From the NCBI GenBank assembly GCA_002361735.1, contig DETS01000011.1, positions 18,539 through 82,538 of the forward strand: a stretch of 64,000 nucleotides of DNA. Direction: 5' to 3'. How positions within the stretch are numbered: the stretch's first letter is position 1; each line of letters starts with the position of its first letter. This DNA comes from Lachnospiraceae bacterium UBA3282. Lineage in GTDB: Bacteria > Bacillota > Clostridia > Lachnospirales > Lachnospiraceae. A program made the position numbers and the translations under genes. Below the pieces are notes generated by a model, which was not told the DNA's origin, did not search any database, and saw only the letters and a list, made by a program, of their open reading frames with translations. Below, in pieces: positions 38,808 to 64,000 of the stretch.

Positions 38808-40901
38808 TCAGGACTCCTGCACTGCCTCTTTTGGCATATCTCTGACAAATCCACAGGCTTCATCGGAGCAGACCAGCTTGTTTCCCTTTTGCAGCATGAT
38901 CGCCCCGCAGCGGTCGCACTTTACATCCACAGGCTTTTGCCAAACCATGAAGTCGCAGTCCGGATTATCGATGCAGCCGTAGTATTTACGTCCCTTTTTG
39001 GTTTTTTTCAGCACGATGTCCTTACCGCACTTGGGGCAGGCAACGCCGATCTTCTCGAAATAAGGCTTGGTGTTCCTGCAGTCCGGAAAGCCCGGGCAGG
39101 CTAAAAATCTGCCGTGAGGGCCGTACTTGATGACCATCTGTCTGCCGCAGAACTCACAAAATTCATCGGAGAGCTCGTCGGCAATCTCTACCTCCGCCAG
39201 CTCCTTCTCCGCCTTTTCCACCGCTTCCTGCAGATCGGGATAGAAGTTTTCGAGCACGGTCTTCCATTTGACGTTTCCTTCCTCCACGGCATCGAGAAGC
39301 GCCTCCATGGTCGCGGTGAAATTGACATCCACAATGGAGGGAAACGCCTCCTTCATCATATTGTTGACCACCTCGCCCAGCTCCGTCACATAGAGATTCT
39401 TATTTTCTTTTACAATGTAGCGTCTGGCGAGGATCGTGGTGATGGTCGGCGCGTAGGTACTCGGTCTGCCGATGCCAAGCTCCTCCATCGCCCGCACCAG
39501 GGAAGCCTCCGTATAATGAGGGGCCGGCTGCGTGAAGTGCTGCTTCTCCTCCAGAGAGGAAAGCGTAAGCTTCGTGTTTTCCGTAATGCCCCGGATGAGA
39601 GTGTTTTCCTCCTCCTTGTCTTCCTCCTGCGTGTAGACGCTCATAAAACCGTCAAATTTGAGTTTGGAAGCCGCCACGGTAAAGCGGTGCTTTCCGGCAT
39701 CGATCTTTACCGAAGTGGTCTCATATACCGCAGCTGCCATACGGCTTGCCGCAAAGCGCTTCCAGATGAGCTGATACAGCTTGAACTGATCTCTGGAAAG
39801 GGAATCCTTGATATCAAGGGGCAGCCTCGAGATATCGGTGGGACGGATCGCTTCATGTGCGTCCTGTATCTTCTTATTATCGGACTTTTTCTCCTGCTCC
39901 GCAGCCGCCGCGTATTCCTCGCCGTACTTCTCCGTAATGTAGGCCCTCGCCGAAGCCTCCGCCTCGTCGGATATTCTCGTGGAATCGGTACGCAGGTAGG
40001 TGATGATACCCGTGGTGCCGCTTCCTTTGATCTCCACACCCTCATAGAGCTGCTGGGCAAGGCGCATGGTCTTCTGCGTGGAAAAGTTCAGGACCTTACT
40101 CGCCTCCTGCTGGAGCGTGGAAGTCGTAAAGGGCAGAGGTGCCTTCTTAACCCGCTCGCCCGTCTTCACACTGGCGATCCGATACTCTGCTCCCGCCAGC
40201 TCCTTCTTGATCTGCTCCATTTCCTCTCTGGACGCGATCGTGCGCTTCTCGCCATCACTGCCGTAATATTTTGCCGTCAGAGGTTTTTTCTCCCCCTCCA
40301 CCTTGAGAAAGGCATCCAGCGTCCAATACTCCTCCGGGATGAAGGCGGCGATCTCCTCCTCTCTGTCACAGATGATGCGCAGCGCCACAGACTGCACGCG
40401 TCCCGCGGACAGCCCGCGCTTCACCTTTGCCCACAGTACGGGCGATATCTTGTAACCCACCATACGGTCCAGGCATCTCCTCGCCTGCTGGGCGTCCACC
40501 AGATCCATGTTGATCTCTCTGGCATTTTTTAAGGACTCTTTTACTGCCGTCTTGGTGATCTCATTAAACGTGATGCGGTACACTTTTTTATTTTCCAATT
40601 TCAACGCATAGAGGAGATGCCAGGAAATCGCCTCCCCCTCGCGGTCCGGGTCAGTCGCCAGATAAACTTTCTCCGCCTTCTTCACTTCCTTGCGAAGATT
40701 CGCCAGAATATCTCCCTTTCCCCGAATCGTAATATAGCGGGGCTCAAAATCATGCTCCACATCGATCCCCAACACGCTCCTGGGCAGGTCGCGCACATGT
40801 CCCTGACTTGCCGCTACCTCATAATTTGATCCCAGAAACTTTTTCACTGTCTTTACCTTTGCAGGTGACTCCACGATTACCAGATATTTTGCCATAACCA
40901 T
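38808..40901 (-). CDS. topA: DNA topoisomerase I
   Basis: 697 aa. It has the TOPRIM start LVIVESPAKVKTVKKFLG, the active-site region ITYLRTDS, and C-terminal CxxC zinc ribbons. The true start may be the second ATG at 40895. Confidence 0.96.
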   Translation of the reverse strand: MVMAKYLVIVESPAKVKTVKKFLGSNYEVAASQGHVRDLPRSVLGIDVEHDFEPRYITIRGKGDILANLRKEVKKAEKVYLATDPDREGEAISWHLLYALKLENKKVYRITFNEITKTAVKESLKNAREINMDLVDAQQARRCLDRMVGYKISPVLWAKVKRGLSAGRVQSVALRIICDREEEIAAFIPEEYWTLDAFLKVEGEKKPLTAKYYGSDGEKRTIASREEMEQIKKELAGAEYRIASVKTGERVKKAPLPFTTSTLQQEASKVLNFSTQKTMRLAQQLYEGVEIKGSGTTGIITYLRTDSTRISDEAEASARAYITEKYGEEYAAAAEQEKKSDNKKIQDAHEAIRPTDISRLPLDIKDSLSRDQFKLYQLIWKRFAASRMAAAVYETTSVKIDAGKHRFTVAASKLKFDGFMSVYTQEEDKEEENTLIRGITENTKLTLSSLEEKQHFTQPAPHYTEASLVRAMEELGIGRPSTYAPTITTILARRYIVKENKNLYVTELGEVVNNMMKEAFPSIVDVNFTATMEALLDAVEEGNVKWKTVLENFYPDLQEAVEKAEKELAEVEIADELSDEFCEFCGRQMVIKYGPHGRFLACPGFPDCRNTKPYFEKIGVACPKCGKDIVLKKTKKGRKYYGCIDNPDCDFMVWQKPVDVKCDRCGAIMLQKGNKLVCSDEACGFVRDMPKEAVQES

Positions 40902-40948
40902 TCCCCTATCTGTATCATTCTAAGGTCAGACCCCGTCCAACATGCAAC

Positions 40949-40977
40949 ACTATACACCGATTTGCAAGAGCATGCAA
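40949..40977 (-). promoter_or_regulatory. sigma-A-type promoter upstream of topA (TTGCAT -17 nt- TATAGT)
   Basis: On the minus strand the -35 is at 40977-40972 and the -10 at 40954-40949. It lies in the 111-nt dprA-topA spacer. Confidence 0.45.
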
Positions 40978-41012
40978 GGGAAAATTTTTACTTTTTTTCA
41001 TTCTATTTTTTC

Positions 41013-42137
41013 TCAGGTTTTCAAAATCCGCATAAAATAGCTGCCGCCGACCTGCCCGGCATAGCCGCACGCGCACAGTTCCAAAAGCTCCTGAAACAGA
41101 AGCGGCAGCGCGATCGACCTGCCCTGTTTTTCCATGTATCTGCGCTGCAATTCCTCCGCCGGCAGCGGCGAAAAATCCAGGATCTCCAAAAGTTCTCCCT
41201 GTATCCCCTCCAAAAAGACCAGCTTCGTCTGTGTGCCGCCTGCGGGTGCCGCATTGTCCCCGTAAAGTTCCTCCAAAAGTTCCTCCGGCGTGCACACAAG
41301 CCCCGCTCCCTGTCGGATCAGACGGTTACAGCCGCCGCTTAAGGGGTCCGTCGCCCGTCCCGGCAGGGCATAGACCTCCCGCCCCTGCTCGAGCGCCATA
41401 TCCACGGTGATGAGCGTGCCGCTCCTCTCCCTCGCCTCCACCACGAGCACCGCGTCGCAAAACCCGCTGATAATGCGGTTTCTCGGAGGAAACAGCGCTG
41501 ATTTCGGCATGACGCCCGGCGGATACTCGGAACAGACCCCTCCTCCCGCAAGCAATGCGTCATACAGTTCCTGATTTTCCCGCGGATAACAGATATCCAC
41601 ACCGCAGCCCAAGACTCCCAGCGAATATCCCCCCTCTCCAAGCGCAGCACTCTGCCCGATGCCGTCTATGCCACGCGCCATGCCGCTGATCACCTGCACG
41701 CCTGCCTTTGCAAAAGCTGCTCCAAACTGCCCTGCCATATATCTGCCATACTCGCTGCAATCCCTTGCGCCGATCAAGGCAACCGCCTTTTTCTCCGCCT
41801 GCGGCAGCTTCCCGACATAATAAAGCGCCCAGGGCGGATCGGGAATCTCCTTTAAGCGCTTCGGAAAGGCTGTCTCCCGCTCCGTCACCAGACTGACGCC
41901 CCGTTTTCGCAGCGTCTCGTAGGCGCCTGCCACATCATAGCCTTCGCTAAATTCTGACATTTGTGTCACCTTTTTGGCATAACGCGGCGCGATACGCTCC
42001 GAAAGCTTCCCGCTGCAAAGCTGTTCGTATACCTCCTGCGCCGTCCCAAAAGACGCAAGTGAGCGCAGAAATCCCCTGCTGCTAACGCCTGCCGCCTGAT
42101 AAAGCCAGTGCAGATACGCCTTTTCCTGCTCTGTCAT
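41013..42137 (-). CDS. dprA: DNA processing protein DprA (Smf)
   Basis: The motif VISGMARGIDGIGQSAAL...GVLGCGVDICYPREN...FPPRNRIISG is present. I moved the start to ATG 42137 (MTEQEKAY), 11 nt after the comM stop codon ends. The track start overlaps comM by 80 nt. Confidence 0.92.
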   Translation of the reverse strand: MTEQEKAYLHWLYQAAGVSSRGFLRSLASFGTAQEVYEQLCSGKLSERIAPRYAKKVTQMSEFSEGYDVAGAYETLRKRGVSLVTERETAFPKRLKEIPDPPWALYYVGKLPQAEKKAVALIGARDCSEYGRYMAGQFGAAFAKAGVQVISGMARGIDGIGQSAALGEGGYSLGVLGCGVDICYPRENQELYDALLAGGGVCSEYPPGVMPKSALFPPRNRIISGFCDAVLVVEARERSGTLITVDMALEQGREVYALPGRATDPLSGGCNRLIRQGAGLVCTPEELLEELYGDNAAPAGGTQTKLVFLEGIQGELLEILDFSPLPAEELQRRYMEKQGRSIALPLLFQELLELCACGYAGQVGGSYFMRILKT

Positions 42138-42150
42138 AAAAATCCCCCTT

Positions 42151-43701
42151 TCAATTCCAGAACTTGCGGTCAGACTGCCTGTAACAGATTGCCTCCGCCA
42201 GATGGCTCTTTTCGATACGCTCGCTGCCATCCAGATCCGCGATGGTCCTTGCCACCTTTAGGATCCTGTGATACGCCCTGGCGGAGAGCTGCATCGCGGC
42301 AAACATCTTTTCCATGTAAGCCCTTTCCTCTTTTTTCAAAGCGCAGTACCGCTCGATCTCCCCCGTTCCCATATCCGCATTGAAATGCAGCTTCGTCCCC
42401 GCAAACCTTGCCGCCTGCCGCTTCCTGGCTGCCATCACGCGCTCCCTGATCTGCTCGCTCGTCTCCTCCCCGCCGCCTGCCGCAAGCTGCGCAAAGCGCA
42501 TGGGAAGCGCTTCCACGCAGATGTCCATGCGGTCCAAGATAGGTCCCGACACCCTGGAAAGATACCGCCTGACCTCATAAGGCGTACAGCGGCACCTCTC
42601 TCTATCAGGGAAAAAACCGCAGGGACAGGGGTTCATCGCACCCACCAGCATAAAATCCGCCGGATAGACATAAGAGCCGCTGCTCCTGGCGATCTGTACC
42701 TGTTTATCTTCCAGCGGCTGCCGTAAGATATCCAGCGTCTCGCGCTTAAATTCCGGCAGCTCGTCCAGAAAGAGCACACCCCTGTGCGCCAGACTGATGA
42801 CCCCCGGCGCGGGAATCCGCCCGCCGCCCGCAAGCGCCCTGCCCGTGATGGTGTGATGAGGATTTAAGAAAGGTCTCGTCATTTTCAGAGAGTCAGCTGA
42901 CTGCAGCATACCGGAAATACTGTAAATCGTGGAAACCTCCAATCCTTCCTCCAAAGACAGCGGCGGCAGGATCGACGGGATCCGCTTTGCCAACATGGTC
43001 TTGCCGGAACCGGGCGCGCCGATGATGAGCAGATTGTGAAAACCCGCCGCCGCGACCTCCGCCGCCCGCTTTAACCCTTGCTGTCCATTGATGTCCGCAA
43101 AATCCGGCTGCCCCGACGCCGCCTTCTCCGACAGCATCTGCGCCAGTTTGGCTACACCCCCGTACCCGGCGGACTGCTTTTTACTCTTTCCGGTAAGGAA
43201 GTCAAGCGCCTCCTTCACATCACCCATGCCTACGCTCTCGATTTCCCCCGTCAGCGCGCCCTCCCAGGCATTTTTCCCCGGCAGAAGGCAGCGTTTGATC
43301 CCCTGCTTTGCCGCCTCCCTCACAATGGGGAGCACGCCCTTTACGGGCTTTAACTCTCCCGAGAGCCCCAGTTCTCCCAAAAGCAGCGTATCCTGCACCG
43401 CCTCCTGCGGAAGCTCCCCCAGCGCGATCATAATGCCCACTGCCACGGGCAGATCAAACATGGTGCCGTTTTTGGGCAGATCCGCCGGTGAGAGATTGAC
43501 ATTGATGCAAACGGGCGGCAGTTTGATACCCACGTTTTTCAGCGCGACCTTCACCCGATCTCTCGCCTCCCGCACCTCGCTTCCCGGCAAGCCGACGATC
43601 TGAAAACAGGGCAGTCCCTGAGAGACATCCACCTCCACCTCGATCAGATGGCTGCAGACGCCGTAAACGGCCCCCGATATTGTTTTTCCAAGCAAAGACA
43701 T
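42151..43701 (-). CDS. comM: YifB/ComM family Mg-chelatase-like AAA+ ATPase
   Basis: 516 aa. It has a Lon-protease-like N-terminal domain, Walker A LLIIGAPGSGKTML, and Walker B VLFLDELPEF. The RBS is AGGAGGTAATG. Confidence 0.93.
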   Translation of the reverse strand: MSLLGKTISGAVYGVCSHLIEVEVDVSQGLPCFQIVGLPGSEVREARDRVKVALKNVGIKLPPVCINVNLSPADLPKNGTMFDLPVAVGIMIALGELPQEAVQDTLLLGELGLSGELKPVKGVLPIVREAAKQGIKRCLLPGKNAWEGALTGEIESVGMGDVKEALDFLTGKSKKQSAGYGGVAKLAQMLSEKAASGQPDFADINGQQGLKRAAEVAAAGFHNLLIIGAPGSGKTMLAKRIPSILPPLSLEEGLEVSTIYSISGMLQSADSLKMTRPFLNPHHTITGRALAGGGRIPAPGVISLAHRGVLFLDELPEFKRETLDILRQPLEDKQVQIARSSGSYVYPADFMLVGAMNPCPCGFFPDRERCRCTPYEVRRYLSRVSGPILDRMDICVEALPMRFAQLAAGGGEETSEQIRERVMAARKRQAARFAGTKLHFNADMGTGEIERYCALKKEERAYMEKMFAAMQLSARAYHRILKVARTIADLDGSERIEKSHLAEAICYRQSDRKFWN

Positions 43702-43963: not shown

Positions 43964-46900
43964 CTATTCTAATAGGAACATTTGGGCGCGGTTTAGGGAT
44001 ACGCTGTCCATACTGAACGCCTCCACACTCTGTCCCGCCCTCGTATAACGGTTCGTGAGCATCACGCAGATCTGCGATTTCTCGTCATCCCCGTTCTGTA
44101 AGGCAATCAGCGGCGCCTTGATGCGATAGACCTTACCCGGAACGATTCCTCCCGTCACCTCCACCAGACGGTTGTTCTCCACCGCCCATATGGGGCTCGT
44201 AAAGGCTGTGTAATCGGCGGTGTTGATCGAGCCGTCCGCCTGCAGGAGTATCGTGTCTGCACCGGCGCCCGGATTCCTGTAATAGAGTGAGAAATCCGTG
44301 ACCTTATCGACTGCAATGTTGTTATCCGTAAAGCGGAAGTATACATCCACCGTATCGCCGAGGATACCGCCTTTTGCGTCTCCGCTCTGCTCGCCTTCCT
44401 TGAATGCCACATCGTAAGGAATGGTGACGCTCTCCACCTTATTCACCCCGTTAAAGCCCGCCACAATGGAGACATTGGCTCTGTGTATGCCGCCGTTATA
44501 TGCCGCCATCAACGCATTCACAAAAATCTTACACTCGTCCAGACCGTCTCCTTCCGGCCCTTTTCCGCTTTCCTTGTCATATCCGTAGGGATACTGTGAC
44601 TGTCCCACATACACCACGTTCCCTTTGCTGTAAACGTAGTAATTATTTCGGCCGTCACAGGGAGAGACACTGTAGCCGCTTGCTGTACGGCCGTCACTCG
44701 AAGCACCGGTATCGAGCAGGGTAAACCACGCCGTAGTACGGGGCTGCCCCGTTCCGCTTCCCTCTCCGGTACTGCCTTCCTCTCCGATATCCAACAGATA
44801 ATCGGGCATCGAGACCTTTGTAGCGCTGCCAAGCTGTGCCCGCGTGTTGACCTGCAGCGGCCATTGCGTGATCACCCCTTCATTGATGCGGTCCAAAAAC
44901 AGACTCGGCGTCTTGTTGAACATATACGCGTCAATGTCTTTGTAGCGATATTGAGAAGGGCTGTGCAGACCGAGTTTTCCGTAAGTCTTTCCATCCTTCT
45001 GTCCCAGAACCGCCGTAGAAAGCCCAAACCTTCCCGTCTCCTCAGAGGCGCCGGCAGAGGAGACAAGCACGCTGCCGCCTGCGGCAATGAACTCATTGAC
45101 CGCTTTAGTCACCGGTTCTCCCGGATTCCTGCTCTCGCCAAATCCCAGCACCACCACATCCCAAAGGGAAAGGTAATTCGGATTCTTATCAAGCAGTTCC
45201 TTCAGCCCATCCTTACCATTACTCGGTTCAATCGTCTTGATGTCCCACGTAATATTTGCTCTTCCCTCCGCCGTCTTCAGATAGTAGGCCAACACAGAAT
45301 TTCCTACCCTTTTATACTGCTCCTCAAAATTGGCATAATCATTCTTCGTATCATCAAGGATCTGCAAAACCCTGATCTTCGTCTTATCATTTCCTGTGAT
45401 CGTAAAATAGCCCTGCGTCGCGGCACGTCGGTATTGGTTGCCATGATCCGCCACCTCCAGCTTCCAAGGCACGATGCCGGAATTGATCTCATTGAAATCA
45501 ACGCTGATCGTACCGCCGTCCGCCGTCTGCTCATGCTGATACCCGGCAATCTCCTCTTCCGGCGCAAAGATACCGTCGTAATTCAGGTCGAGATACAGAT
45601 GTCTGTCCAGCTCCCTCCCGTAGGTCTTATTGTCCCCTGTCCTATCGCTCGAAATCCGGTAGGCAAACGTACCGCGGACGACACCGGTCCGGTCCTCCAC
45701 CGGCTCCGCAGGAATCATGCCTATCTGCTCATTCTGTTCCTCGTCCCCGTTTTCGCCGCCATCCGGCGCAGCATCGTTTTCCCTCTGCAGTTCCACCTTC
45801 GGCCGCAGAGCTTTCAACTGCATCGCAAACATAGCGCTGCTGTGCACGTCCTCGATGGTGTAGAGTCCGACATCCGACTCCTCATCCTCCTTTTGATCCG
45901 CTCTCATGGCGATTGCTTCCTCAAAGAACGCATACATCTGCGTGTCTTTGGCAATATATTTCGTATTGATATCTTTCGCTTCGGCTTTCCTGGCGCTCCC
46001 GCCCGTAAAGCAGTCATTCTCCACCACGATCGGATAGCCTGCCCGCAGATAGTCGAGCAAAGCGTTCTTTTTCTCCGCCGTGATATCGTTCTCATCGTAT
46101 CTGACATCGCTGCCCGCCACGCGGTCTCCTCTGTGGTAGACTTTGCCGTTTAAGTCCGAATCGTTGTAGACTGTCTGCAACATGTTGTCCTTATCAGGCT
46201 CTCTGTAGAGGCGCTGCCCGTCCAGACCGATGAAGATCATATTGTAAGCCTCGTTGATGTCCTCGTGACTGGTGTTGAACGCCGCCACCGAATGCAGCTC
46301 CTTGTCAATCTTTATCTTTCTGGAACTTCTGAGGATCTGCTGTCCGTCCCCGCTCTGATCCTGCCTCTTCCAGTAGAGAACGACTCTTTCCTTATCCGCC
46401 GGCGCTTCATAGTGCAAATCGGACTCTATATTCGCCGTCGGCTGCAGCTCCAGGATGGAGAGATTCTTGTAGTCCCCGACTAATCCGCGGGAGTAATTGA
46501 TGATGTACTGCACTGCCATCGCCTTGCTGACTTCTTCGGCTATCTTCTCATCATCCGCCAACATAACGTTCTCCGCCTTGATTGCCGCCAACACCTCGGT
46601 AAAGCCCGAAGTCGCTGCGGTTTTATCCATCGCATCCGGAAAATCGTCCGCCACCAGCGGTGTCGAACCATTCACAATATAGATATTTCGGTTTACATAA
46701 TGATACTTATTGTCTTTTTTGTTCGGATACTCCGTGGATTCTTTATCCGCATTCATTAAGGCACTGTTTGCCAGATCGTCTGACTTTGCCATCGCGTTAT
46801 AGTAAGCAGCAAGATCCTGTTTCAGAAAGACCTTTGCCAGCTTCTGATACTTGGTATCCGCATAATCGTTTTCATTCGTCACGATGCCGTAGTCCACAAT

Positions 46901-49585
46901 AACAGGCTTTGACTCCTCCACCGCCCCATACAGCAGACTCGTGATCACCGCATCCGAAAGATCACCCACACCGTCATCGGCATTTCCCTTTTTCTCCGTA
47001 TAGATATAGCCCTTCGGCGTATTCTGGTCAAAATAGAGCCCCGTGCCATCCTCGAGGTAGACAAGATTCGCTTCCTGTACCATCTCATACGTCACATCAC
47101 CGGCGAGCACCGTATTCACCTTGATCGCAAAATCATCAGAAGCATTGTCCTGCGCCTTCAAGGAATTAAACACATGTTTTCTGAGATAATCCTTTCCGCT
47201 GGTACACCGTATATATACGGGTGCATTCTGCACCTCGATATAATGCGAAGAAGTACTCGCCGCCGCAATCTCATAATATTCCTGCGCTGTCTGCATATCC
47301 TGTACTTCCTGTGCATCCTGCGCTGCATCTTTCATACTTACAAATTCTATATCCCGCTCTATCGGCTGTACGCCCGTTAATTCCGAAACTCTTTGAGGAC
47401 TGCCTGCCTTGGTAAGCTTATACATTCCCTTTCCGTCGCCAACATATCGAAAACTCCCCACAACAGCAGGATTCACAGCATTGGGTTCCGTATCCAAAGC
47501 TGCAGTTAAGCCGTTTTGGGACAATCCCTTTTCCAAGTGATAGGTATCATAAGGGCGCGGCTGTCCCTCGATCGAATAGAATCTGCCGCTCTCTTTCACC
47601 TGATAAAGCAGTTCCTCCTGCTCGGTCTCAACATAGTTAAATTTTATGATACAATAGGTCCCTTCCTCCAAACCGAGCGTCGGTTGAGGTTCCGGTTCTG
47701 GCTCAGGTTGAGGTTGAGGCTGCGGTTCCGGTTCAGGCTCGGGTTGAGGCTGAGGTTCCGGTTCAGGCTCGGGTTGAGGCTGAGGTTCCGGTTCGGGCTC
47801 GGGTTGAGGCTGCGGTTCCGGTTCAGGCTCGGGTTTGGGTTGAGGTTCCGGTTCAGGCTCGGGTTGGGGTTGAGGCTGAGGTTCCGGCTGAGGCTCCCCC
47901 TCGTTCATAGGCTGCGCTATTTCTACATAGTAACGCCAAGCTCCTGCCGCCCTAGACACAGACTGCACTTGCTGCTCCGACTGAGACTGCGGCTGTTCAG
48001 ACTGTACCTCCTGCTCCCCTTGTTCCATCAACTGCTCAGGCTGCGGTTCCGGCTGAGGCTCAGGTTGAGGCTGAGGTTCCGGCTGAGGTTCCGGCTGCTC
48101 CGGCTGCTCCGGCTGTGGATCGGTCGGTGCCGGATCGGTCGGCTGCGGTTCCGTCGGTGTCGGATCGATCGGCTGCGGATCGGTCGGCTGTGGATCCGTC
48201 GGTGTCGGATCGGTCGGCTGCGGATCGGTCGGTTCCGGATCGGTCGGCTGCGGATCGGTCGGTTCCGGTTCCGTCGGTGTCGGATTCGTCGGTTCCGGCT
48301 TGGTCGGTTCCGGATCGCTCGGCTGTTCCGGCTCCGGTTTCGGACGCGGAATCCCTTTCATCTCTCCGATCGTGCTGGCATAGCGATATACGCCGTTCTC
48401 AACGACATACACACCCGTTGCGTCGGAATAACTGCCGCCAAAGATCACTTCGTCATAACTGCCGCTCATGAGCAATTCCGGGCGATAACCGCTCGTCCCC
48501 ATGACCGGTCCTTCAAAAAATACCTGATACTCTCCCTCTCCGTCCGGTGCAAAGGTAAAGACATCCCCTGCTGCTGTTACAGCGGAAGACATAACCGAAT
48601 CGCCAAAAAGCGAACCGTTCGCCGGCCAAACCAGATTATAGTCATATCCCGAAAGCGCGGGAAGATTATTGATATCCGCCCCCTCAGCATCCGGCCTCCT
48701 ATCCACATAAGCGTAAAGTTCTCCTGTCGAATAGGACGCAGGTGACTGTCCGCCGTCGGGCGCGGCTTCCGCCGGATCATAGATCTGACTCCACATACTG
48801 CTTCGCAGATCCTCACCCATGCCGCCGTAAGCTTCCTGATAGCTGATTCCCTCATAACCGCTTCCCATGACCGAAGTAGTCAATTCTTTTCTTGCCGAAT
48901 AGGGATAGAACTTTTCCTTATCACTCCCCGTAAAAATACGCACCAGATCCTGCTGGATCGGCGACTGTCCCGGCGCAAGATAGCCGATGGTCCCCAGTGA
49001 AAACTCGTATTTCTTATCCGCCGAATATGCCTTTCCCGGCACAATATCCAGGATCACAAAGGGATTCTTCTCGTTGTGTTCCTCCACGACCTGCTTCATG
49101 CCGCCAAAGGACGACTTCGCCTGTACGATAGATGCCGGCGTGCCGTTCATAAAGCGAGGCGATACATAAAGTCCCGTTACCACAAGCGCTGCCGCCACCG
49201 CGACCGCCACCGCGCGCCCGAAGATTTTTTTGCCGGACAAACGCTTACGTGCTCTATAGGGCTTGATTTGCTGCGTCTGCACACTAAACACTTTCAAGTC
49301 CGAACGCGCGCTGTCACGCTCCAGACTGTCCCTGTGCTCATACTCACTGCGCAGCTGTCTGAGCAGATCATTCAGTTCCCCATCCTCCTGCACGCTGTCA
49401 CGATCGGCTGCCCCGACGCTGCCGGCTCTCCCGGCATTCTTTTTATCCTTCGACGCCCGTATGCCCAAAAACGCCGCAAAAGCTGCCGCCGCTCCCATAA
49501 GAAACGTCAAAAGGACAATCAGCGGACTGATCTGCTTTTTCTCCGTATGCTGCCGTATTATGGCATTTTTCTTTTCTCTGCCCAT
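43964..49585 (-). CDS. giant (~1873 aa) membrane-anchored surface protein with a ~200-aa Pro-Glu/Gln/Thr/Asp stalk; last gene of the pilus-like operon; function unknown
   Basis: This is a single uninterrupted ORF. I favour ATG 49585, which is 8 nt after GAGGG; the track start is TTG 49591. There are two hydrophobic segments ([24 protein letters not shown] and [21 protein letters not shown]). PTDPx and [10 protein letters not shown] repeats cover about residues 415-640. The C-terminal region is ~1230 aa. Confidence 0.85.
47682..48350 (-). repeat. coding low-complexity tandem repeats (30-nt unit = [10 protein letters not shown] at 47682-47895; 15-nt unit = PTDPx at 48036-48350)
   Basis: The unit gttcaggctcgggttgaggctgaggttccg recurs with an exact 30-nt phase from 47731 to 47880. 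ggatcggtcgg(c/t)t(g/c)c units repeat from 48115 to 48260. Confidence 0.9.
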
Positions 49586-49615
49586 ACGCAATACCCTCTC
49601 TCATCAGGCGGTTTC

Positions 49616-57617: not shown

Positions 57618-58469
57618 CTATTCCGCCGCGGGTTCCTCTGCTTCACCCTCGGCATTTTCACCTTCTTCGTTTTCCGCGCCTTCCTCCAGATCGGGAAGAT
57701 TTCCCTCGCTGCGGATCACTCTTGTGCCAAAGATATTATTTGTACCCAAAAGCACACCGCCAAAGTCAGGCTCCTCGTACTCCTTGCCCTCCTGCCCGGG
57801 TACACAGAACAGATCCACTGTCGTGGAACCCTTCAAAAGCCCCGTCTGCTCATCGTAAACCACCGTCAGGTTGTTAATGACCATGCGGTCGGTCTGCATA
57901 CAGATATTTTTGACGCTGCGCTTTAAGCCCTCATAAGATACTCCGTAATTAATCGTTGCTCTGCGGTACATCAGATTAAAAGGATTCGCACCGGACGCAT
58001 CGTGTGTCACATCCGCTTCGACCGTTGTGGGATCCTGCGTCCCCGTAGCGTCCTCGATTTCTTCCACTTCTTCGATCTCGTAGGTAGCATCCGGCATATC
58101 CGGATCCTGTGCCTCCACTATCGGCACCTCCAAAAGGGCGTCTATGGTGACGGACTCCACCTCCATCGGAGAAAGCAGTTCCTGATTGATCGCCAAAAGG
58201 ATCGCGTTTTCCTCGCGCACATCCACCGGGAAAAGCTGGTAAATTTCCTCCATCTCCCTGCGCATCCGCGCCGTCTCACTCTCGTAGGTGTCGCGGTTTT
58301 CCTTCTTGCTCTGCAGATCCGCGATCCGATCCTCCAACTGCTTATTCTCCTGCATAAGCGCCTCGTTCTTTTCCGTCGTCGGCTGGAATACAAACAGATA
58401 GGAGCAAACGGCAGCCAGGATACCCAGAAAACCAACCAAAATCAATATATCTCTCTTTGATACCTTCAT
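57618..58469 (-). CDS. pilO: PilO-like pilus assembly protein
   Basis: 283 aa. It has an N-terminal TM (ILILVGFLGILAAVCSYLFV), a coiled coil (NEALMQENKQLEDRIADLQSKKE) and a globular domain. It sits after PilM-PilN. The C-terminal tail is acidic. Confidence 0.65.
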   Translation of the reverse strand: MKVSKRDILILVGFLGILAAVCSYLFVFQPTTEKNEALMQENKQLEDRIADLQSKKENRDTYESETARMRREMEEIYQLFPVDVREENAILLAINQELLSPMEVESVTIDALLEVPIVEAQDPDMPDATYEIEEVEEIEDATGTQDPTTVEADVTHDASGANPFNLMYRRATINYGVSYEGLKRSVKNICMQTDRMVINNLTVVYDEQTGLLKGSTTVDLFCVPGQEGKEYEEPDFGGVLLGTNNIFGTRVIRSEGNLPDLEEGAENEEGENAEGEAEEPAAE

Positions 58470-58481
58470 CCCGCCTGCCTC

Positions 58482-60245
58482 CTATTCCGCTGCTGCAGCC
58501 GCATCCGCGTCTGTTCCGCCGTCTTCTGTATCTTCTGTATCTTCCGTCTCCTCGGGCGGCTCATAGCCCACTGCCTGATAGGGCGCCGTCACCGTAAAGT
58601 TGACTGTATGCTCGCCGCTCTCCTGATTCTCCTCCTCGACAATGGAAGTCACTGTCACGCGATCCGGAATCAACGAGTGGAAGGTACGCATCTGCTCCAC
58701 CGTCTCACCCACATCATCCTTTGTCTGCACCTTCATATTGATGCTGACCTCGAGGGAACTGCTGGAAAAGGAAACAACATTGACATTGGAGGGCAGCTTA
58801 TCCTCGAGCTCTCCCAAAAATTCTTCCAGCTCCTCGTTCCTGCTCTCCGTCGCGTCGTACATGGCGCCTACCATAGCACGCTCCGTCTGTACTCTGACAT
58901 ATTCATTATAGATGGGGATGATATCTTCCAGACTGCCCGCCTGCGCCTTTAACTCCATATTCGTCTTTGTCAGCTTCGCGTAGTTGACCATCGGAATCGC
59001 TGCCAGAGCGGCGGCCGCCGCCAGACCAACGCCAAAGATACTGTAAGCAAGCGGCGCCCAATTCGTCCCCTTTTCCGCGCTGCTGCCTGCTTTGCCCTTC
59101 TTTTCCTTACCGCGCTTCTCCGCCTCCTGCTTAAAATCAAGCGGTGCGACAGCGGCGCCCACGCAGGCTATGTATTCGCTGAAGCACTCGTTCTTAAAGT
59201 TACGCATCAGGTTCCAGCCTGCCGCTTCCTTTAAGACCGTCACCGGCATATTGACTTCCTGAGAAATCAATTCGCCCATGCCCTTAAAGTCCGCGCCGAG
59301 ACCCGTGATGAGGATCCTTTCGATGCCTTCGCCCGAAGTCCTGGACGCATAGTAATCGATGACACGGGAGATACCGTTGACCAGCGGCACAATGGCATCC
59401 ATCACGTCCTCCAGCGCCTTGGTCTTTGCCGTCCGCACCACAGGCTGCGGCTCCGGTCTGCCGATATGCGGTTCCTCCGTCTCAACTTTCTCTGTCTTTG
59501 ATTTATCCTCCAGCGTGATACACTCGTTTCGCTGCAGCACGCGGATCGCCTGCTCCACGGAAGTAACCTCGCCCCAGCAGAGCGTGTTCATGACCGCCTC
59601 CATGACCGCCTCCACGCCGTAGGAAACGTTTCTGGTAAAGGTCATCACGGAATCCTCCACCGCCATCACCAGGGAAGACCGCTCGTCAATCTTAACGACG
59701 ATGTGCTTTCCTTTTGCACACTCGTCCTTCACTACCTGATAAATACTGTTGCTGGCGTAGTCAATCGCCGCCACCTCCAGCTTCAGCGCCTTCGCCAGCT
59801 CATAATAACCCGTAAGGAGCGAGGACGGTACTGCAATCACCATCAGCTTATACTGCTGAGAGCCCTTTTCCCCGACTGTCCCTAAGATCGTATAAGAAAG
59901 CTGATACTGGCTTAAGTCCACCGGAAAATAATCCGAAGCGTTGGCGTTGACCACGTCCGCGATCCTGTTCTCCTTTACAAAGGGGATCATGACTTCACGG
60001 CTGGCGATCTTGGAAGAACCGATCGTGAACACCACCTGTTTGGTCTTTACATGGTTCACCGCAAGCGCGCGCTGCAGATTCGCCACATATTCGGGAGTCG
60101 CATTCAGCGCGCCGTCGTTAATGATCTCCGCGCCGTTTGCCACCGTAAAACTCTTATAGATTCTGTGTGTCTTCGCCTTGTAGTCCACTTCGCAGACTTT
60201 CGTCAGCGAATAGCCGATCTCTATCGTGATCGCTCTGGAAGCCAT
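58482..60245 (-). CDS. pilM: PilM-PilN fusion protein (actin-like ATPase fold + TM + PilN-like domain)
   Basis: 587 aa. The N-terminus ITIEIGYSLTKVCEV...VFTIGSSKIASREVMIPFV...RILITGLGADFKGMGELI is PilM/FtsA-like. A TM follows (WAPLAYSIFGVGLAAAAALAAIPMV), then a coiled coil and a PilN-like domain. Confidence 0.75.
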   Translation of the reverse strand: MASRAITIEIGYSLTKVCEVDYKAKTHRIYKSFTVANGAEIINDGALNATPEYVANLQRALAVNHVKTKQVVFTIGSSKIASREVMIPFVKENRIADVVNANASDYFPVDLSQYQLSYTILGTVGEKGSQQYKLMVIAVPSSLLTGYYELAKALKLEVAAIDYASNSIYQVVKDECAKGKHIVVKIDERSSLVMAVEDSVMTFTRNVSYGVEAVMEAVMNTLCWGEVTSVEQAIRVLQRNECITLEDKSKTEKVETEEPHIGRPEPQPVVRTAKTKALEDVMDAIVPLVNGISRVIDYYASRTSGEGIERILITGLGADFKGMGELISQEVNMPVTVLKEAAGWNLMRNFKNECFSEYIACVGAAVAPLDFKQEAEKRGKEKKGKAGSSAEKGTNWAPLAYSIFGVGLAAAAALAAIPMVNYAKLTKTNMELKAQAGSLEDIIPIYNEYVRVQTERAMVGAMYDATESRNEELEEFLGELEDKLPSNVNVVSFSSSSLEVSINMKVQTKDDVGETVEQMRTFHSLIPDRVTVTSIVEEENQESGEHTVNFTVTAPYQAVGYEPPEETEDTEDTEDGGTDADAAAAAE

Positions 60246-60312
60246 TTGCCATTTCCTCCCTCATTTCGCCAGGCGCTCAAAAACGCCTGCCGATATTCTC
60301 ATCTATAAAGTG

Positions 60313-60342
60313 ACAATAAACCTGCCGGGGATGCCCGCAGGT
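60313..60342 (-). terminator. terminator-like hairpin between pilD and pilM
   Basis: The minus strand reads ACCTGCGGG-CAT-CCCCGGCAGGT (a ~9-bp stem with one bulge) followed by TTTATTGT. Confidence 0.45.
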
Positions 60343-60435
60343 ATTATTTCCTAAATTAGATTCACTCTGCCGTGCTTGAAAAACCGACGGTTTTCCTCGC
60401 TCGCGGGCTGTTCTACGCTCCGCTTCCGGCAGCGC

Positions 60436-61191
60436 TCACAGCAATCGTGAAAAGTACCAGTTTATCATCCGCTCGCCCCACAGCGCCGCGATCATGACGC
60501 CCATCGATAAGTAGGGTCCCATCGCCAATACATGCCCCTCGCCGCTTACTTTCATGCGGATCACATGGATGACTGCGCCCAAAACACAGCCGAGCAGAAA
60601 CGCCAAAATAATCAATTTCCAGCCGAGCAGCAGTCCGCAGGCTGCCATCAGCTTCACATCGCCGCCGCCGATCGCTCTGCCGCCGGTGGCATAGTACAAA
60701 ATCGCTAACACAATACTGACAGAAAGGGAGCCGATCAAGTAGGTAAGGATATTGGAGAAGTCCGTCGCCGCCCGGATCAGCCCCAGTGCCAGTATAAACA
60801 GATTGATTCCAAAGGGAATCTCATAAGTCCTAAAATCGATCACGCTCAACACAAGGAGCGCGGAAGCCAATAGACAATAGAGTAGGGAATCTATGCCTAT
60901 ACCGCCTGTCCATACGATACAAACGTATAAGATTCCGTTCGCCGCCTCAATCAGAGGATACTGGACAGAAAGTTTCGCGCCGCATTTGCGGCACTTTCCC
61001 CGCAGGGCAAGGAAGCTGAACAGCGGGATCATATCGTACCATTTGAGGTGGTAGCCGCAGCTCATACAATGGGAGGCGGTCTTTACGATGTCCTCCTTCT
61101 TCGGGATGCGATAGATGCAGACGTTTAAGAAGCTGCCGATCACGATGCCAAAGATGAATATGATGCAGTAGAGTATGATATCCGGTGCCAT
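60436..61191 (-). CDS. pilD: prepilin peptidase / N-methyltransferase (A24 family, PilD)
   Basis: The MAPDIILYCIIFIFGIVIGSFLNVCIYRIP start is followed by the Cys box HCMSCG...CRKCG. Catalytic Asp contexts are VIDFRTYEIP and GGGDVKLMAACG. I chose ATG 61191 with an AAAGGA RBS. The track's TTG 61248 would read through the G12 tract. Confidence 0.9.
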   Translation of the reverse strand: MAPDIILYCIIFIFGIVIGSFLNVCIYRIPKKEDIVKTASHCMSCGYHLKWYDMIPLFSFLALRGKCRKCGAKLSVQYPLIEAANGILYVCIVWTGGIGIDSLLYCLLASALLVLSVIDFRTYEIPFGINLFILALGLIRAATDFSNILTYLIGSLSVSIVLAILYYATGGRAIGGGDVKLMAACGLLLGWKLIILAFLLGCVLGAVIHVIRMKVSGEGHVLAMGPYLSMGVMIAALWGERMINWYFSRLL

Positions 61192-61230
61192 GTCCTGTCC
61201 TTTACGGGAAAATTGGTTGGTAACGTATTT

Positions 61231-61242
61231 CCCCCCCCCCCC
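61231..61242 (-). repeat. homopolymeric G12 tract (C12 on the + strand) 39 nt upstream of the pilD ATG
   Basis: Twelve consecutive C on the plus strand. It is the only homopolymer of this length that I noticed in the window. Confidence 0.95.
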
Positions 61243-61345
61243 ATGCAAAAATGCGTTTTTTGAAGTTCGCTTTTCTGCACAGAGGGCGAGGGGTTACGTT
61301 GTGTTGCTTATGTCTTTATCTTATGTAGGTTGTGCGGGTAGGTTA

Positions 61346-61822
61346 TCAGGTCCCGGCAGGCTTGCCAGCCATAGCATCCTGAAAAGCAGTGGTAGCTTTT
61401 CCGCCTGTGTTTGTATAAACCCAGGTAATATCACCATTAGCCCCCATTGTTCCCGTCATCGTATAAGTAGCCCATCTGGTCTTGCTGACACACTTAATAT
61501 CAGCTACCTTGAGCCCTGCCGCTTTGATTGCATCCGTTCCAACTGCTGATGCAGTACCATCTATTGTTGTGCCGGTACCCTCAACCTTAATTTCAATAGT
61601 CTGCCCTGCAGTCGCGGAAGATGATGCCTCAGGATCAGCGCACCATGTTTCAACTGCAATTTTGAGCTCGGTCGCATTCTGCAGATCGGTTGAGTTACGG
61701 GATCTCTCCACGTATTTCAGGTACTGAGGAGCCAGTACCACGATCAGGATCGCCATGATCGCGATAACGATAATCAGCTCGACGAGGGAGAAACCTTTGT
61801 TGTTCATGTTCTCTTTTTTCAT
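61346..61822 (-). CDS. pilA: major type IV pilin (158 aa)
   Basis: The leader is MKKENMNNKG and the mature N-terminus is FSLVELIIVIAIMAILIVVLAPQYLKYVE (Glu +5). The RBS is strong (GGAGAAGGAAACAATG). There are two Cys residues in the C-terminal half. Confidence 0.88.
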   Translation of the reverse strand: MKKENMNNKGFSLVELIIVIAIMAILIVVLAPQYLKYVERSRNSTDLQNATELKIAVETWCADPEASSSATAGQTIEIKVEGTGTTIDGTASAVGTDAIKAAGLKVADIKCVSKTRWATYTMTGTMGANGDITWVYTNTGGKATTAFQDAMAGKPAGT

Positions 61823-61910
61823 TGTTTCCTTCTCCTTTTCCTCATGATTCTTGGTTGTTTGGTTTTTGGTTACTCTATCTTAAACGCGGCTGTTCCCTAC
61901 TCAGGCGCGT

Positions 61911-62087
61911 TTAATTCGGTTTGTTTTTCCTCTCCCGGAATTGACGCTCCAGTCGTTTCAATAATTCTTTATTTTCCCGAAATATCTGTCTCAATTCTTC
62001 CTCATCCACATCATCTCTCTGCCCTGCCGGACAAAGGGTAATCGGTGCAGGATTAAATTTTATATCGTTCAATGTATACTCACTCAT
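61911..62087 (-). CDS. small hypothetical protein (58 aa) with charged helical C-terminus
   Basis: I moved the start to ATG 62087 (MSEYTLNDIKF...) after GGAAGGTG. It begins 16 nt after the stop of the JAB-like ORF. A short hairpin follows at 61884-61910. Confidence 0.5.
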   Translation of the reverse strand: MSEYTLNDIKFNPAPITLCPAGQRDDVDEEELRQIFRENKELLKRLERQFRERKNKPN

Positions 62088-62103
62088 TTTTTCACCTTCC
62101 AAA

Positions 62104-62697
62104 CTAATGATAAAACAGTCCAACCTCACTGCACCTTGCCAAGAAGGTCAAACTCGCCATATAATATTCCTGTACCTTTGATTTCGCTGTTAATCCAACA
62201 ATACACTCGTTATATAATTCCATAGAAGCATCGTAGTTATATTCATTATCTTTGCAAAGATAATGGACAATACCTTGATTTGTAACTACTACCATTATTC
62301 TAATTGACTCAAAATGAAGAAAAAATCTTATATCTTCTATCGATAATGTCTGCGTAGACGGATGATTATGCAAAACCACCACAGCGCATCTTCGTGATGA
62401 CAAAATCAAATGATTCGATGCCGTATCTGCACAGATATCTACTTCATGTTCATCCCCAAAAGAAATACCAATTTCTTTCCACGGATCATCTCCATCTAAT
62501 GTACAGGTTATTGCCACCTCATTGCTATTGTTTTCTGTCTGCGATGTGAGCAAAACAAGTTTCGCCAACTGATACAGCACATCACTTTCCTTGTCGCTTA
62601 GTCCCCTGTATTGTATCAAAGGAACTTTTTCAACAGCAACATCTGTAATATATATCTTTTTATCTCTCTTTTTTGCAAATAGTTTCGTTTCTTCCAC
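62104..62697 (-). CDS. JAB/MPN (RadC-like) metalloprotease-domain protein, divergent
   Basis: At about 62337-62378 the motif CAVVVLHNHPSTQTLSIEDI matches the RadC/JAMM pattern aaIlaHNHPSGxxxPSxxDI, but the spacer is one residue shorter. A candidate upstream Glu is in KEIGISF. The GTG start has a weak RBS, so the start is uncertain. Confidence 0.55.
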   Translation of the reverse strand: MEETKLFAKKRDKKIYITDVAVEKVPLIQYRGLSDKESDVLYQLAKLVLLTSQTENNSNEVAITCTLDGDDPWKEIGISFGDEHEVDICADTASNHLILSSRRCAVVVLHNHPSTQTLSIEDIRFFLHFESIRIMVVVTNQGIVHYLCKDNEYNYDASMELYNECIVGLTAKSKVQEYYMASLTFLARCSEVGLFYH

Positions 62698-62743
62698 TCT
62701 ATTTTATGCAACCGCTTCCTTAATACTCTATACTATCATTTAT

Positions 62744-63958
62744 TTACAGGTTATCCAGTGCCGCGTACATCGTCACCATAGGCGCCATCACCGCCGCGAT
62801 CAGGATGCCGACGATACCCGCCAGTACGATGATGATCATGGGCTCCATAGCCGCCATCAGGGACTGCACCGCCATCTCCACTTCTTCTTCGTAGTAGTCC
62901 GCCAGTTTATTGAGCATCTCCTCCGTGGAACCCGCTTCCTCACCGATCCTCATCATATGATAGACCATGGGCGGGAACAAACCGCAGGTCTGCACGGGCT
63001 GCGATAAGGGCACGCCGACCATGATCTGCTCGAGCGCCGACTTTAAGGCTTCCTTAAACCAGATATTCGTCATGGTGTCCGAGACGATGTCCACCGCCTC
63101 GATCAGAGGCACGCCTGCCGTCAGCAGGGTGCTTAACGTCCGCGCCATCTGTGCGCTGGCTGTTTTTACCACCAGATTCTTAATTGCGGGAATCTTTAAC
63201 TGCAGCTTCCCGAACACATGCTTGCCGGAATTGGTCTTTGCGTATGTCTTAATCAAAAATACGACAGCTATGACCACGGGAATGATGATGTACCAGTTAT
63301 TTTGAATAAAATTACTGAGGGCGACCACCGCCAGCGTGATTGCCGGAAGCTCCGTATCGAGCTGCTCAAACATATCCATATAACGGGGGATGACGAACAC
63401 CAGCATCACGATCACGACCACTACCGCAATGATTGCCACCACGATCGGGTAGATCATGGCTTTCTTTACCAATGCCTGCGTCTTTGCGGATTTCTCGAAC
63501 TGGATCGCCATGCGCTCCATCGCCGTATCCAGACTGCCGGACGCCTCGCCCGCCCTCGCCATCTGCACCAAAAGCTCCGGGAACACTGCCGGATGCTCCG
63601 CCAGGGAATCGGCAAAGCTCTCGCCCTTTTCCACATCGGCACGCACGGCGTAGAGGGCTTTCTGCATCTTCTTATTTTCCGTGGAATCCGCCAGCATGTT
63701 CAGGGTCTCGATGATCGTGACACCCGCTCTGGTGATGCTGGCAAACTGTCTGCAGAACACTGCCATATCACGGGGTGTCGGCTTGCTGCCGAAATCAAAG
63801 CTGATATCCTTGGTCAGCATATTCTGCTCTGTCAGTTCCAGCACAATAAGACCCTGATTTTTCAGATCCCTGAGCGCGAGATCCTTATTATCAGCGTCTC
63901 TACTGCCTTTTACTTCCTTGCCGCTTTTATCGATCGCAACATATCCCCAGACCGCCAT
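62744..63958 (-). CDS. pilC: type IV pilus/T2SS platform protein (GspF/PilC family)
   Basis: 404 aa with the duplicated T2SSF architecture. FCRQFASITRAGVTIIETL and MARTLSTLLTAGVPLIEAV each precede TM segments. The RBS is GGAGGA with a 6-nt spacer. Confidence 0.9.
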   Translation of the reverse strand: MAVWGYVAIDKSGKEVKGSRDADNKDLALRDLKNQGLIVLELTEQNMLTKDISFDFGSKPTPRDMAVFCRQFASITRAGVTIIETLNMLADSTENKKMQKALYAVRADVEKGESFADSLAEHPAVFPELLVQMARAGEASGSLDTAMERMAIQFEKSAKTQALVKKAMIYPIVVAIIAVVVVIVMLVFVIPRYMDMFEQLDTELPAITLAVVALSNFIQNNWYIIIPVVIAVVFLIKTYAKTNSGKHVFGKLQLKIPAIKNLVVKTASAQMARTLSTLLTAGVPLIEAVDIVSDTMTNIWFKEALKSALEQIMVGVPLSQPVQTCGLFPPMVYHMMRIGEEAGSTEEMLNKLADYYEEEVEMAVQSLMAAMEPMIIIVLAGIVGILIAAVMAPMVTMYAALDNL

Positions 63959-63980
63959 CGCATATCCTCCGTATTCCCCC

Positions 63981-64000
63981 TTATATACCCAGATACAAGA
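63981..64000 (-). CDS. 3' end of an upstream ORF (identity not determinable; plausibly the next pilus-locus gene)
   Basis: The minus-strand frame reads ...LYLGI then TAA at 63983-63981, 22 nt before the pilC ATG. Only 6 codons are visible. Confidence 0.3.

Follow-up and report, generated by a model that had tools for sequence, protein, structure and literature searches.

What is the function of a giant protein whose gene closes a type IV pilus operon and which is not itself a pilin? This question is raised by a stretch of 64,000 nucleotides (nt) from Lachnospiraceae bacterium UBA3282 (assembly GCA_002361735.1, contig DETS01000011.1, positions 18,539 to 82,538), which is called the window in the following. 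On its minus strand, a single gene (43964..49585 in window coordinates) encodes a protein of 1873 amino acids (aa), which a model had described from the sequence alone; we refer to that description as the original prediction. Our analysis favors, with a probability of roughly 55%, the interpretation that the giant is an exported non-pilin adhesin and priming factor of the Lachnospiraceae type IVa pilus, which would be analogous but not homologous to PilC/PilY1. Five findings are direct observations: the intact gene, its family, the obligate synteny, the layout of the domains and the conserved motifs. The proposal builds on these and on the comparison with known systems.

Gene integrity and operon context

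The minus-strand reading frame is unbroken from 43964 to 49591, where a TTG is located. The putative start codon is the ATG at 49585; the sequence GAGAGGG is found about 8 nt 5' of it, i.e. at the right spacing for a ribosome-binding site (RBS), and the product therefore consists of 1873 residues. An internal start codon, which would drop the first of two N-terminal hydrophobic segments, was rejected, because 47 homologues keep this segment and a good RBS precedes the ATG at 49585. The one uninterrupted open reading frame (ORF) of about 5.6 kilobases (kb) that had been predicted is thus real and intact: more than 150 full-length homologues of 1500–1960 aa were found, and none of them is split.

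The gene of the giant closes a type IV pilus operon encoded on one strand (Table 1), and a gap of only 30 nt separates it from the upstream pilin gene. With the giant as tblastn query, we retrieved 72 loci from species-representative genomes; almost all belong to Lachnospiraceae, and the closest one originates from a mouse-gut metagenome-assembled genome (MAG) and shows 90% identity. In every locus with enough upstream flank, four pilins are followed by the giant on the same strand, and their order is conserved: a minor pilin (~470–525 aa), a pilin-like protein lacking the glutamate at position 5 (Glu5; ~710–880 aa), a minor pilin (~180–190 aa), a fourth minor pilin, and the giant. The link to the pilus that had been proposed before is thus tight and a property of the family, whose gene is the terminal one of a type IV pilus operon wherever the flank suffices. 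Three homologues at 38–46% identity occupy the same operon position and have differing downstream genes; generally, downstream genes vary between clades. Even in a distant subfamily at about 24–35% identity (Mobilisporobacter, Anaerocolumna, Acetivibrio ethanolgignens, Herbinix), the giant is terminal after PilC, pilin, PilD, PilMN, PilO and four pilin-like genes.

The reverse search gave the same picture. Starting from the Glu5-less pilin, we scanned metagenome contigs and found the giant in 33 of the 33 loci offering at least 8 kb of downstream room; no locus lacked it. The scan was seeded with an alignment of four Glu5-less pilin sequences, as an alignment of eight sequences proved too divergent.

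The DUF5057 family

The giant matches the Pfam family PF16480 (DUF5057) at aa 1166–1509 with E=5.6e-30 and 105.4 bits (cut-off 27.9), covering positions 1–376 of the 378 profile positions; apart from one low-complexity match, Pfam reported nothing else. In agreement with this assignment, homologues are named 'DUF5057 domain-containing protein' in their source records. The original prediction had suggested a Pfam search for a DUF family restricted to Clostridia, and this family, largely from Lachnospiraceae among the loci fetched, bears out that expectation. The Pfam model ignores the borders of the structural domains (see below): it begins late in module 2, includes the Ig-like domain and stops halfway through module 3. 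A full-text search for 'DUF5057' returned no paper from the library searched, and neither a function nor a link to pili is attached to the family; likewise, nothing specific was found there on accessory proteins of Lachnospiraceae type IV pili.

An exhaustive search of 1.84 billion cluster representatives identified 680 related clusters at E≤1e-3. Among the best 150 of these 680, most entries comprise 1200–2300 aa and match in their C-terminal part, and shorter entries look like fragments. A homologue search with a profile of module 3 was discarded, as almost only fragments were returned. Several relatives (P0188, P0219, P0233, P0214, P0239) carry extra modules, namely a rubredoxin-like zinc ribbon, CBM77, F5/8 type C (NedA-like galactose-binding) and Listeria-Bacteroides repeats. 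The variable N-terminal region is where CBM77 and the repeats are located; the F5/8 domain lies C-terminal to DUF5057. To judge by sequence, the CBM77, F5/8 type C and Listeria-Bacteroides modules would argue for extracellular adhesion.

N-terminus and export

Both N-terminal hydrophobic segments that had been predicted were found by hydropathy analysis, and each has Lys/Arg on both flanks. They differ in their distribution. The N-terminal extension with segment 1 was found in 47 of 106 close homologues, whereas segment 2 aligns with the sole N-terminal hydrophobic segment of all homologues. Directly before the conserved KESFxG and 6–19 residues past the hydrophobic core there is a putative cleavage site, with Ala at -1 in 106/106 sequences, V, A, T or I at -3 in 103/106, and a variable -2 position. 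Comparable V-x-A sites exist in the distant homologues. A pattern of this kind at -3/-1 is the rule for signal peptidase I. As segment 2 is present family-wide and is followed by an invariant -3/-1 site, the protein is probably secreted and not anchored. Neither a hairpin anchor nor a signal anchor, the two topologies considered in the original prediction, fits best; segment 2 and the invariant Ala(-1) point to a cleaved signal peptide. The mature giant would thus reside outside the membrane and has probably been released from it, and its body is most likely extracellular.

Other modes of surface display were also considered. A prepilin-type leader was rejected, since the giant has no N_methyl match and neither hydrophobic segment contains G|FxxxE. 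An LPxTG signal was rejected as well: no LPxTG-like sortase motif was found in the giant, as had been stated before, and Pfam detected no SLH or other cell-wall-binding domain. Among other features, a vWA/MIDAS motif (MIDAS, metal ion-dependent adhesion site) and a catalytic amidotransferase triad were dismissed.

Domain layout

Two structure models were used. The AlphaFold2 model of aa 1040–1873 has a mean pLDDT (predicted local distance difference test) of 85.9 and a pTM (predicted template modelling) score of 0.87; it consists of an α/β part (1040–1270), an immunoglobulin (Ig)-like sandwich (1290–1397), a second α/β part (1402–1699) and a C-terminal β-sandwich (1704–1868). The second model covers aa 146–1345 (pLDDT 70.5) and shows an ordered region (156–415), a disordered one (416–635), β-hairpins (644–726) and an α/β module (781–1035).

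The original prediction had treated the approximately 260 residues in front of the proline tracts as a separate head domain, an assignment that does not hold. The distant subfamily keeps aa 121–240 and 800–1873 and is devoid of most of 241–800. As distant homologues retain residues ~157–240 together with 800–1873 but not ~241–795, the helix and the strand FVILDIVPG are part of α/β module 1. What remains of the 'head' forms, by sequence comparison, an insertion after the first strand of this module, together with the two proline tracts and the hairpins (aa ~241–795). The distance between the first strand and module 3 ranges from 969 to 1772 aa in 196 family members, and the C-terminal part is nearly constant.

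The two Pro-rich tracts are present as predicted, as is the Gln-rich island between them with the quoted 21-residue string. At the DNA level, the tracts are tandem repeats, tract 1 at 48110–48325 with a period of 15/30/45 and tract 2 at 47682–47889 with 6.9 copies of a 30-nt period. Their interpretation as a wall-spanning stalk is not upheld: long proline tracts are restricted to relatives at ≥58% identity and are located inside the module 1 insertion. Within the island, Trp550 (GAWRYYVEI, aa 543–551, 47933–47959, minus strand) is kept in at least 90% of 109 homologues, with hypervariable flanks; this stretch could act as a short linear motif or contribute a strand that docks elsewhere.

The other strings quoted from the body were all located, namely at aa 176 (12 residues), 1043 (14), 1404 (19), 1477–1510 (14 and 13 residues) and 1685 (14). 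Three of the predicted segments had been called similarly phrased, and the models show that each of them is the opening strand of an α/β module. Beyond this correspondence, there is no detectable repeat: the profile-profile comparison by means of hhalign gave a probability of at most 1.4% for homology among the three α/β modules or among the β-sandwich regions.

Fold of the modules

The body had been predicted to contain repeated sequence cues resembling class-I glutamine-amidotransferase-like (ThuA/DUF4159-type) modules. Support for this was obtained for module 3, the only one to show a similarity to class-I amidotransferases or GIFT domains. For the C-terminal model, Foldseek gave a probability of 1.0 to 7dpt_A (amidotransferase domain of CTP synthase) and to 7oci_G, a chain of the yeast oligosaccharyltransferase (OST); the TM-scores are low because the query spans several domains. 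Chain 7oci_G is probably the GIFT-domain subunit Wbp1, judging from its size; Wbp1 has been assigned to the GIFT-domain proteins (PMC7226087). Weak Pfam matches of module 3 sequences were to ThuA (2 of 18 members, best E=5e-4), IFT52_GIFT and Flavodoxin_1. Judging from its model, module 3 resembles the GIFT/ThuA-type domains of Wbp1/OST48, GldG, IFT52 and ThuA in being a three-layer α/β domain without a catalytic triad, but it has no significant sequence match in the PDB, and no known GIFT/ThuA family is tied to pili.

Module 3 carries an invariant D-x-x-N-N-Y-Y-x-Y motif. Across both subfamilies it contains no invariant Cys or His and is therefore no catalytic amidotransferase, in line with the predicted lack of a catalytic motif. 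The region of strand 4 reads SVLFTHDxTS in the distant subfamily and is a different 10-residue string in the giant.

For modules 1 and 2, no significant amidotransferase-like match was obtained, and Foldseek with the model of aa 146–1345 returned nothing below E=0.1; for these two modules, the predicted similarity was thus not recovered. Foldseek runs with whole multi-domain models were discarded, as long meaningless alignments dominated the output (e.g. transglutaminases at a TM-score of ~0.1). Searching the PDB with the whole protein gave low-complexity proline matches only; the module 3 profile had no significant PDB match, those to a nanobody and to HPPK being spurious; at relaxed thresholds, Pfam had nothing for the N-terminal extension, the inserted head and modules 1 and 2; and no NCBIfam model matches the giant.

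Conserved short motifs

The most conserved short motif of the family is an EF-hand-like loop in the Ig-like domain, which is a predicted Ca2+ site and the only motif of this kind in the protein. In 57 sequences from both subfamilies, the occupancy was 57 for D1, 55 for N3, 55 for D5, 52 for G6, 53 for F/Y8 and 53 for E12.

A second hallmark is the extreme C-terminus. Family-wide, the proteins end in [LM]-F-x-L-[DE]-COOH, with LFLLE (57 cases) and MFLLE (47) in the close subfamily, LFDLD (45) and LFNLD (9) in the distant one, and some others; this giant ends in MFLLE. In the model of aa 1040–1873, the last residues have a low pLDDT, which would fit a free tail.

Comparison with known systems

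PilC/PilY1 proteins, the tip adhesins of Gram-negative type IVa pili, are encoded together with four minor pilins, among them PilX, which has no Glu5; with these pilins they are located at the pilus tip and act in priming (PMC7541494). The function of PilY1 depends on Ca2+ binding (PMC3248442, PMC8833165). A paper published in 2026 showed that PilC/PilY1 licenses assembly by donating its last ~10 residues as an additional β-strand to a pilin of the PilK family, whereas GspK provides the completing strand in cis; Gram-positive type IVa pili are not treated there (PMC13533445). A review on Gram-positive type IV pili describes the late-stage and outer components of Gram-negative systems as missing and ascribes adhesion to modular minor pilins, without listing a non-pilin component of this kind (PMC6916266).

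Our giant shares a whole set of properties with PilC/PilY1. It is a large non-pilin whose gene terminates a cluster that also encodes four minor pilins, one without Glu5; it would be exported by a type I rather than a prepilin signal; its N-terminal part is variable and its C-terminal part conserved; and it combines a loop of a conserved Ca2+ type, predicted in the giant, with a conserved extreme C-terminus. Unlike PilY1, it possesses neither the β-propeller nor a vWA domain according to Pfam, and its 834 C-terminal residues were confidently modeled otherwise; moreover, it is longer (1873 aa), and its host is single-membraned and has no secretin. Lacking the β-propeller and the vWA domain, the giant is an analogue and not a member of the PilC/PilY1 family.

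Other Gram-positive systems offer partial parallels. The tapirins of Caldicellulosiruptor are, like the giant, non-pilin surface proteins encoded beside a type IV pilus locus; they bind substrates, have a β-helix fold, are much smaller and are not known to be homologous to the giant. PilB and PilC of Streptococcus sanguinis are modular and contain adhesive modules. They exemplify adhesion of a Gram-positive type IV pilus by large, low-abundance proteins encoded in the operon (PMC6916266); in contrast to the giant, which has no G|FxxxE, they are true pilins cut by the prepilin peptidase. BsaC of Clostridium perfringens is an exported non-pilin that needs type IV pilus components to cross the Gram-positive wall (PMC11580942), but it is a vWA protein of 70 kDa from a separate biofilm-matrix operon.

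Proposed role

If the giant acts as an adhesin and priming factor, its path to the pilus tip could be as follows. It would be exported by the Sec system and cleaved after VQA(156), as the conserved -3/-1 site suggests. The conserved scaffold, i.e. the three α/β modules, the Ig-like domain with its EF-hand-like Ca2+ loop and the C-terminal sandwich, would then dock on the complex of four minor pilins, for which synteny and the analogy to PilC/PilY1 argue; in this step, the invariant C-terminal tail may serve as an added β-strand. The major pilin, polymerising beneath this complex, would move the ~185-kDa protein across the peptidoglycan, so that it ends up at the tip of the pilus. There, the variable insertion could bind a target surface or glycan: here by means of a β-rich domain on long flexible proline tethers, in relatives by means of carbohydrate-binding modules.

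A more far-reaching version of this proposal is possible, with the odds somewhat against it. In this version, the DUF5057 giants would be the missing Gram-positive type IVa counterpart of PilC/PilY1, that is, a convergent Ca2+-dependent non-pilin of ~200 kDa, whose invariant tail completes the Glu5-less minor pilin by β-strand addition and which is needed to start assembly and to hold a swappable tip adhesin module.

The implications would be considerable. Lachnospiraceae are a major gut and rumen family, and they possess a strictly operon-linked non-pilin giant that unites hallmarks of PilC/PilY1, including a presumed signal peptide, with an unrelated fold. If the proposal is true, licensing by β-strand addition, as published in 2026, extends to Gram-positive type IVa pili, and an uncharacterised Pfam family of ~680 sequence clusters gains a function. 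The giant would then most likely decide what Lachnospiraceae pili stick to, be it mucus, plant fibre or other cells, and the swappable insertion (proline-tethered domain, CBM77, discoidin, Listeria-Bacteroides repeats) would be a specificity marker readable in metagenomes. In the more far-reaching version, a dominant gut family would depend on this single gene for piliation and for attachment to surfaces or glycans.

Alternative explanations

Several observations weigh against an exported tip protein. At the N-terminus, 47 of the 106 close homologues, this giant included, have an additional hydrophobic segment with positive charges on both flanks, and Ala(-1) could be conserved for structural reasons and not for cleavage. 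The 879-aa Glu5-less pilin ends in a strongly conserved VRYMNWIKK-COOH of its own; like GspK, it could complete its sheet in cis, and a strand in trans would then be unneeded. A DUF5057 protein of only 519 aa is encoded 3' of an ABC transporter, in a neighbourhood free of pilus genes (L079 10001–11560, L080 3510–5069). Finally, as synteny was observed almost wholly within one bacterial family, part of it could be due to inheritance and not to constraint. The last doubt is countered by the fact that synteny is retained at 24% identity despite a changing set of downstream genes. Carried to its end, it would make the giant an independent surface protein, which shares the neighbourhood of the pilus genes through common descent in Lachnospiraceae; nearly all homologues come from one family, the widely conserved topA downstream indicates that the local gene order is generally stable, and the 519-aa fragment manages without pilus genes. 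We consider this explanation very improbable: besides outlasting divergence and changes of the downstream gene, the adjacency has survived a tandem duplication, none of the 33 loci found via the pilin is without the giant, and the gap to the upstream pilin is a mere 30 nt on the same strand. The 519-aa protein, for its part, shares the downstream GtrA-like, Mur_ligase/FolC-type, LRP1-like and CM_2/PDT genes with the full-length locus L077 and therefore looks like a remnant, probably left after loss of the operon.

Two further explanations accept the link to the pilus and place the giant differently; both are unlikely in our view. It might be an uncleaved, membrane-anchored part of the machine, forming a collar or conduit around the pilus base in the wall zone and extending its proline tracts into the peptidoglycan, which comes near the idea of the original prediction. 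An N-terminal hydrophobic segment of 17–23 residues with a Lys/Arg-rich cytoplasmic side would suit such an anchor, a simple signal peptide would not usually come with the further segment seen in roughly half of the close homologues, Pro-rich tracts are a common feature of proteins associated with the wall, and the synteny with machine genes is strict. Yet the conserved -3/-1 site fits cleavage, and the long proline tracts exist only in the closest clade, where they interrupt module 1 instead of linking anchor and body. The plant- and glycan-binding modules of relatives (CBM77, F5/8 type C) would be more sensible away from the cell, and a variable insertion in a conserved scaffold is the pattern of an adhesin. 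Alternatively, the giant could be cargo: a large folded exoprotein, possibly carbohydrate-active or carbohydrate-binding, which pilus extension would drive across the peptidoglycan in the manner of type II secretion and which would then be released or loosely held at the surface. Secretion of the 70-kDa BsaC depends on a type IV pilin in Clostridium perfringens, and folded proteins larger than ~25 kDa reportedly cannot pass thick peptidoglycan (PMC11580942); even PilY1 has been described as analogous to the substrates of type II secretion (PMC7541494), and sugar binding was proposed for ThuA/GIFT-like folds such as that of module 3 (PMC7226087). Against a role as cargo stands that the giant has no conserved catalytic motif, the invariant residues of module 3 including neither Cys nor His, and that the BsaC gene lies outside the pilus operon. 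A protein in transient passage would also fit the conserved extreme C-terminus and the one-to-one pairing with the set of minor pilins less well than one that docks stably.

Features of the window and neighbouring genes

The features of the giant and of its operon are compiled in Table 1.

Table 1. Location of the giant's gene, its parts and the upstream pilus genes in the window.
Feature	Residues	Position	Strand	Basis or remark
Whole gene, DUF5057-family giant	1873 aa + stop	43964..49585	-	ORF, RBS, PF16480, full-length homologues
N-terminal extension: hydrophobic segment 1 (~18–44) and ~75-aa charged linker	1–120	49226..49585	-	
Hydrophobic segment 2 (~120–146) and predicted signal peptidase I site V-Q-A | K	cleavage after 156	49118..49225	-	
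First elements of module 1: helix, strand FVILDIVPG, helices	157–240	48866..49117	-	pLDDT 85–94; kept in both subfamilies
β-rich part of lineage-specific insertion	241–415	48341..48865	-	strands pLDDT 60–89; largely missing in distant subfamily
Proline tract 1, PTDPx repeats, predicted disordered	416–515	48041..48340	-	sequence, model, DNA repeat
Gln-rich island between the proline tracts, holds GAW(550)RYYVEI	516–560	47906..48040	-	sequence, alignment
Proline tract 2, PEPQ repeats, predicted disordered	561–636	47678..47905	-	sequence, model, DNA repeat
End of insertion: long β-hairpins (644–726), variable acidic stretch (727–775)	637–795	47201..47677	-	model, alignment
Rest of α/β module 1	796–1039	46469..47200	-	pLDDT 70–95; conserved; no significant PDB match
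α/β module 2, first strand LSILELQPT	1040–1270	45776..46468	-	pLDDT ~90; many invariant acidic residues
Linker and Ig-like β-sandwich	1271–1400	45386..45775	-	all-β, pLDDT ~90; alone matches DUF5057, E=2e-7
EF-hand-like loop D1333-x-N-x-D-G-x-F-x-x-x-E1344, Ig-like domain, predicted Ca2+ site	1333–1344	45554..45589	-	
α/β module 3, class-I amidotransferase/GIFT-like, no catalytic triad	1401–1702	44480..45385	-	model, Foldseek, weak Pfam
C-terminal β-sandwich region	1703–1868	43982..44479	-	AlphaFold2 model
Extreme C-terminus, candidate docking strand	1863–1873	43967..43999	-	alignment, model, PilC/PilY1 precedent
Minor pilin, G|FTIVE, directly upstream of giant	1031 aa	49616..52711	-	syntenic in all loci with enough flank
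Minor pilin, G|YSLIE	191 aa	52711..53286	-	weak GspH-like match
Pilin-like protein without Glu5, G|SAIVI, candidate PilK/PilX/GspK counterpart	879 aa	53309..55948	-	no Pfam family
Minor pilin, G|FSLLE	525 aa	55975..57552	-	weak PilV/GspI-like match
Core pilus genes, whole span		57618..63958	-	
PilO-like		57618–58469	-	by position only, no Pfam match
PilM-N fusion, acidic low-complexity C-terminus	587 aa	58482–60245	-	
Prepilin peptidase		60436–61248	-	
Major pilin		61346–61822	-	
Platform protein PilC		62744–63958	-	

With 525, 879, 191 and 1031 aa, the four minor pilins are unusually large or modular. A PilM-N fusion of the same size exists in related loci. Between pilC and the gene of the major pilin, there is an ORF of 197 aa (62104–62697, minus strand) containing VVLHNHPS, a metal motif of the JAB/MPN type; the only Pfam hint is a RadC-like JAB match at E=0.059. 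The 2-kb piece holding this ORF (62001–64000) has the lowest GC content of the window (0.47), and the ORF may be a gene inserted into the pilus operon.

Downstream of the pilus operon, yifB/comM, dprA, topA, codY and a fla/che operon are found on the minus strand (38808–43701 and 1–38662); comM and dprA are transformation-related genes. In most related loci topA comes after the giant; the presence of yifB and dprA is limited to the closest clade. Members of the distant subfamily have a gene for a small GtrA-like membrane protein directly 3' of the DUF5057 gene (L076 14674–15123, L077 16102–16551, L079 11587–12006, L080 5096–5515). In an Acetivibrio ethanolgignens MAG (L078 5224–14638), two large genes encoding 1563 and 1545 aa follow the minor pilins in tandem; the second is the DUF5057 match P0183, and the first, for which no Pfam match is recorded, is assumed to be a paralogue because of its size and position.

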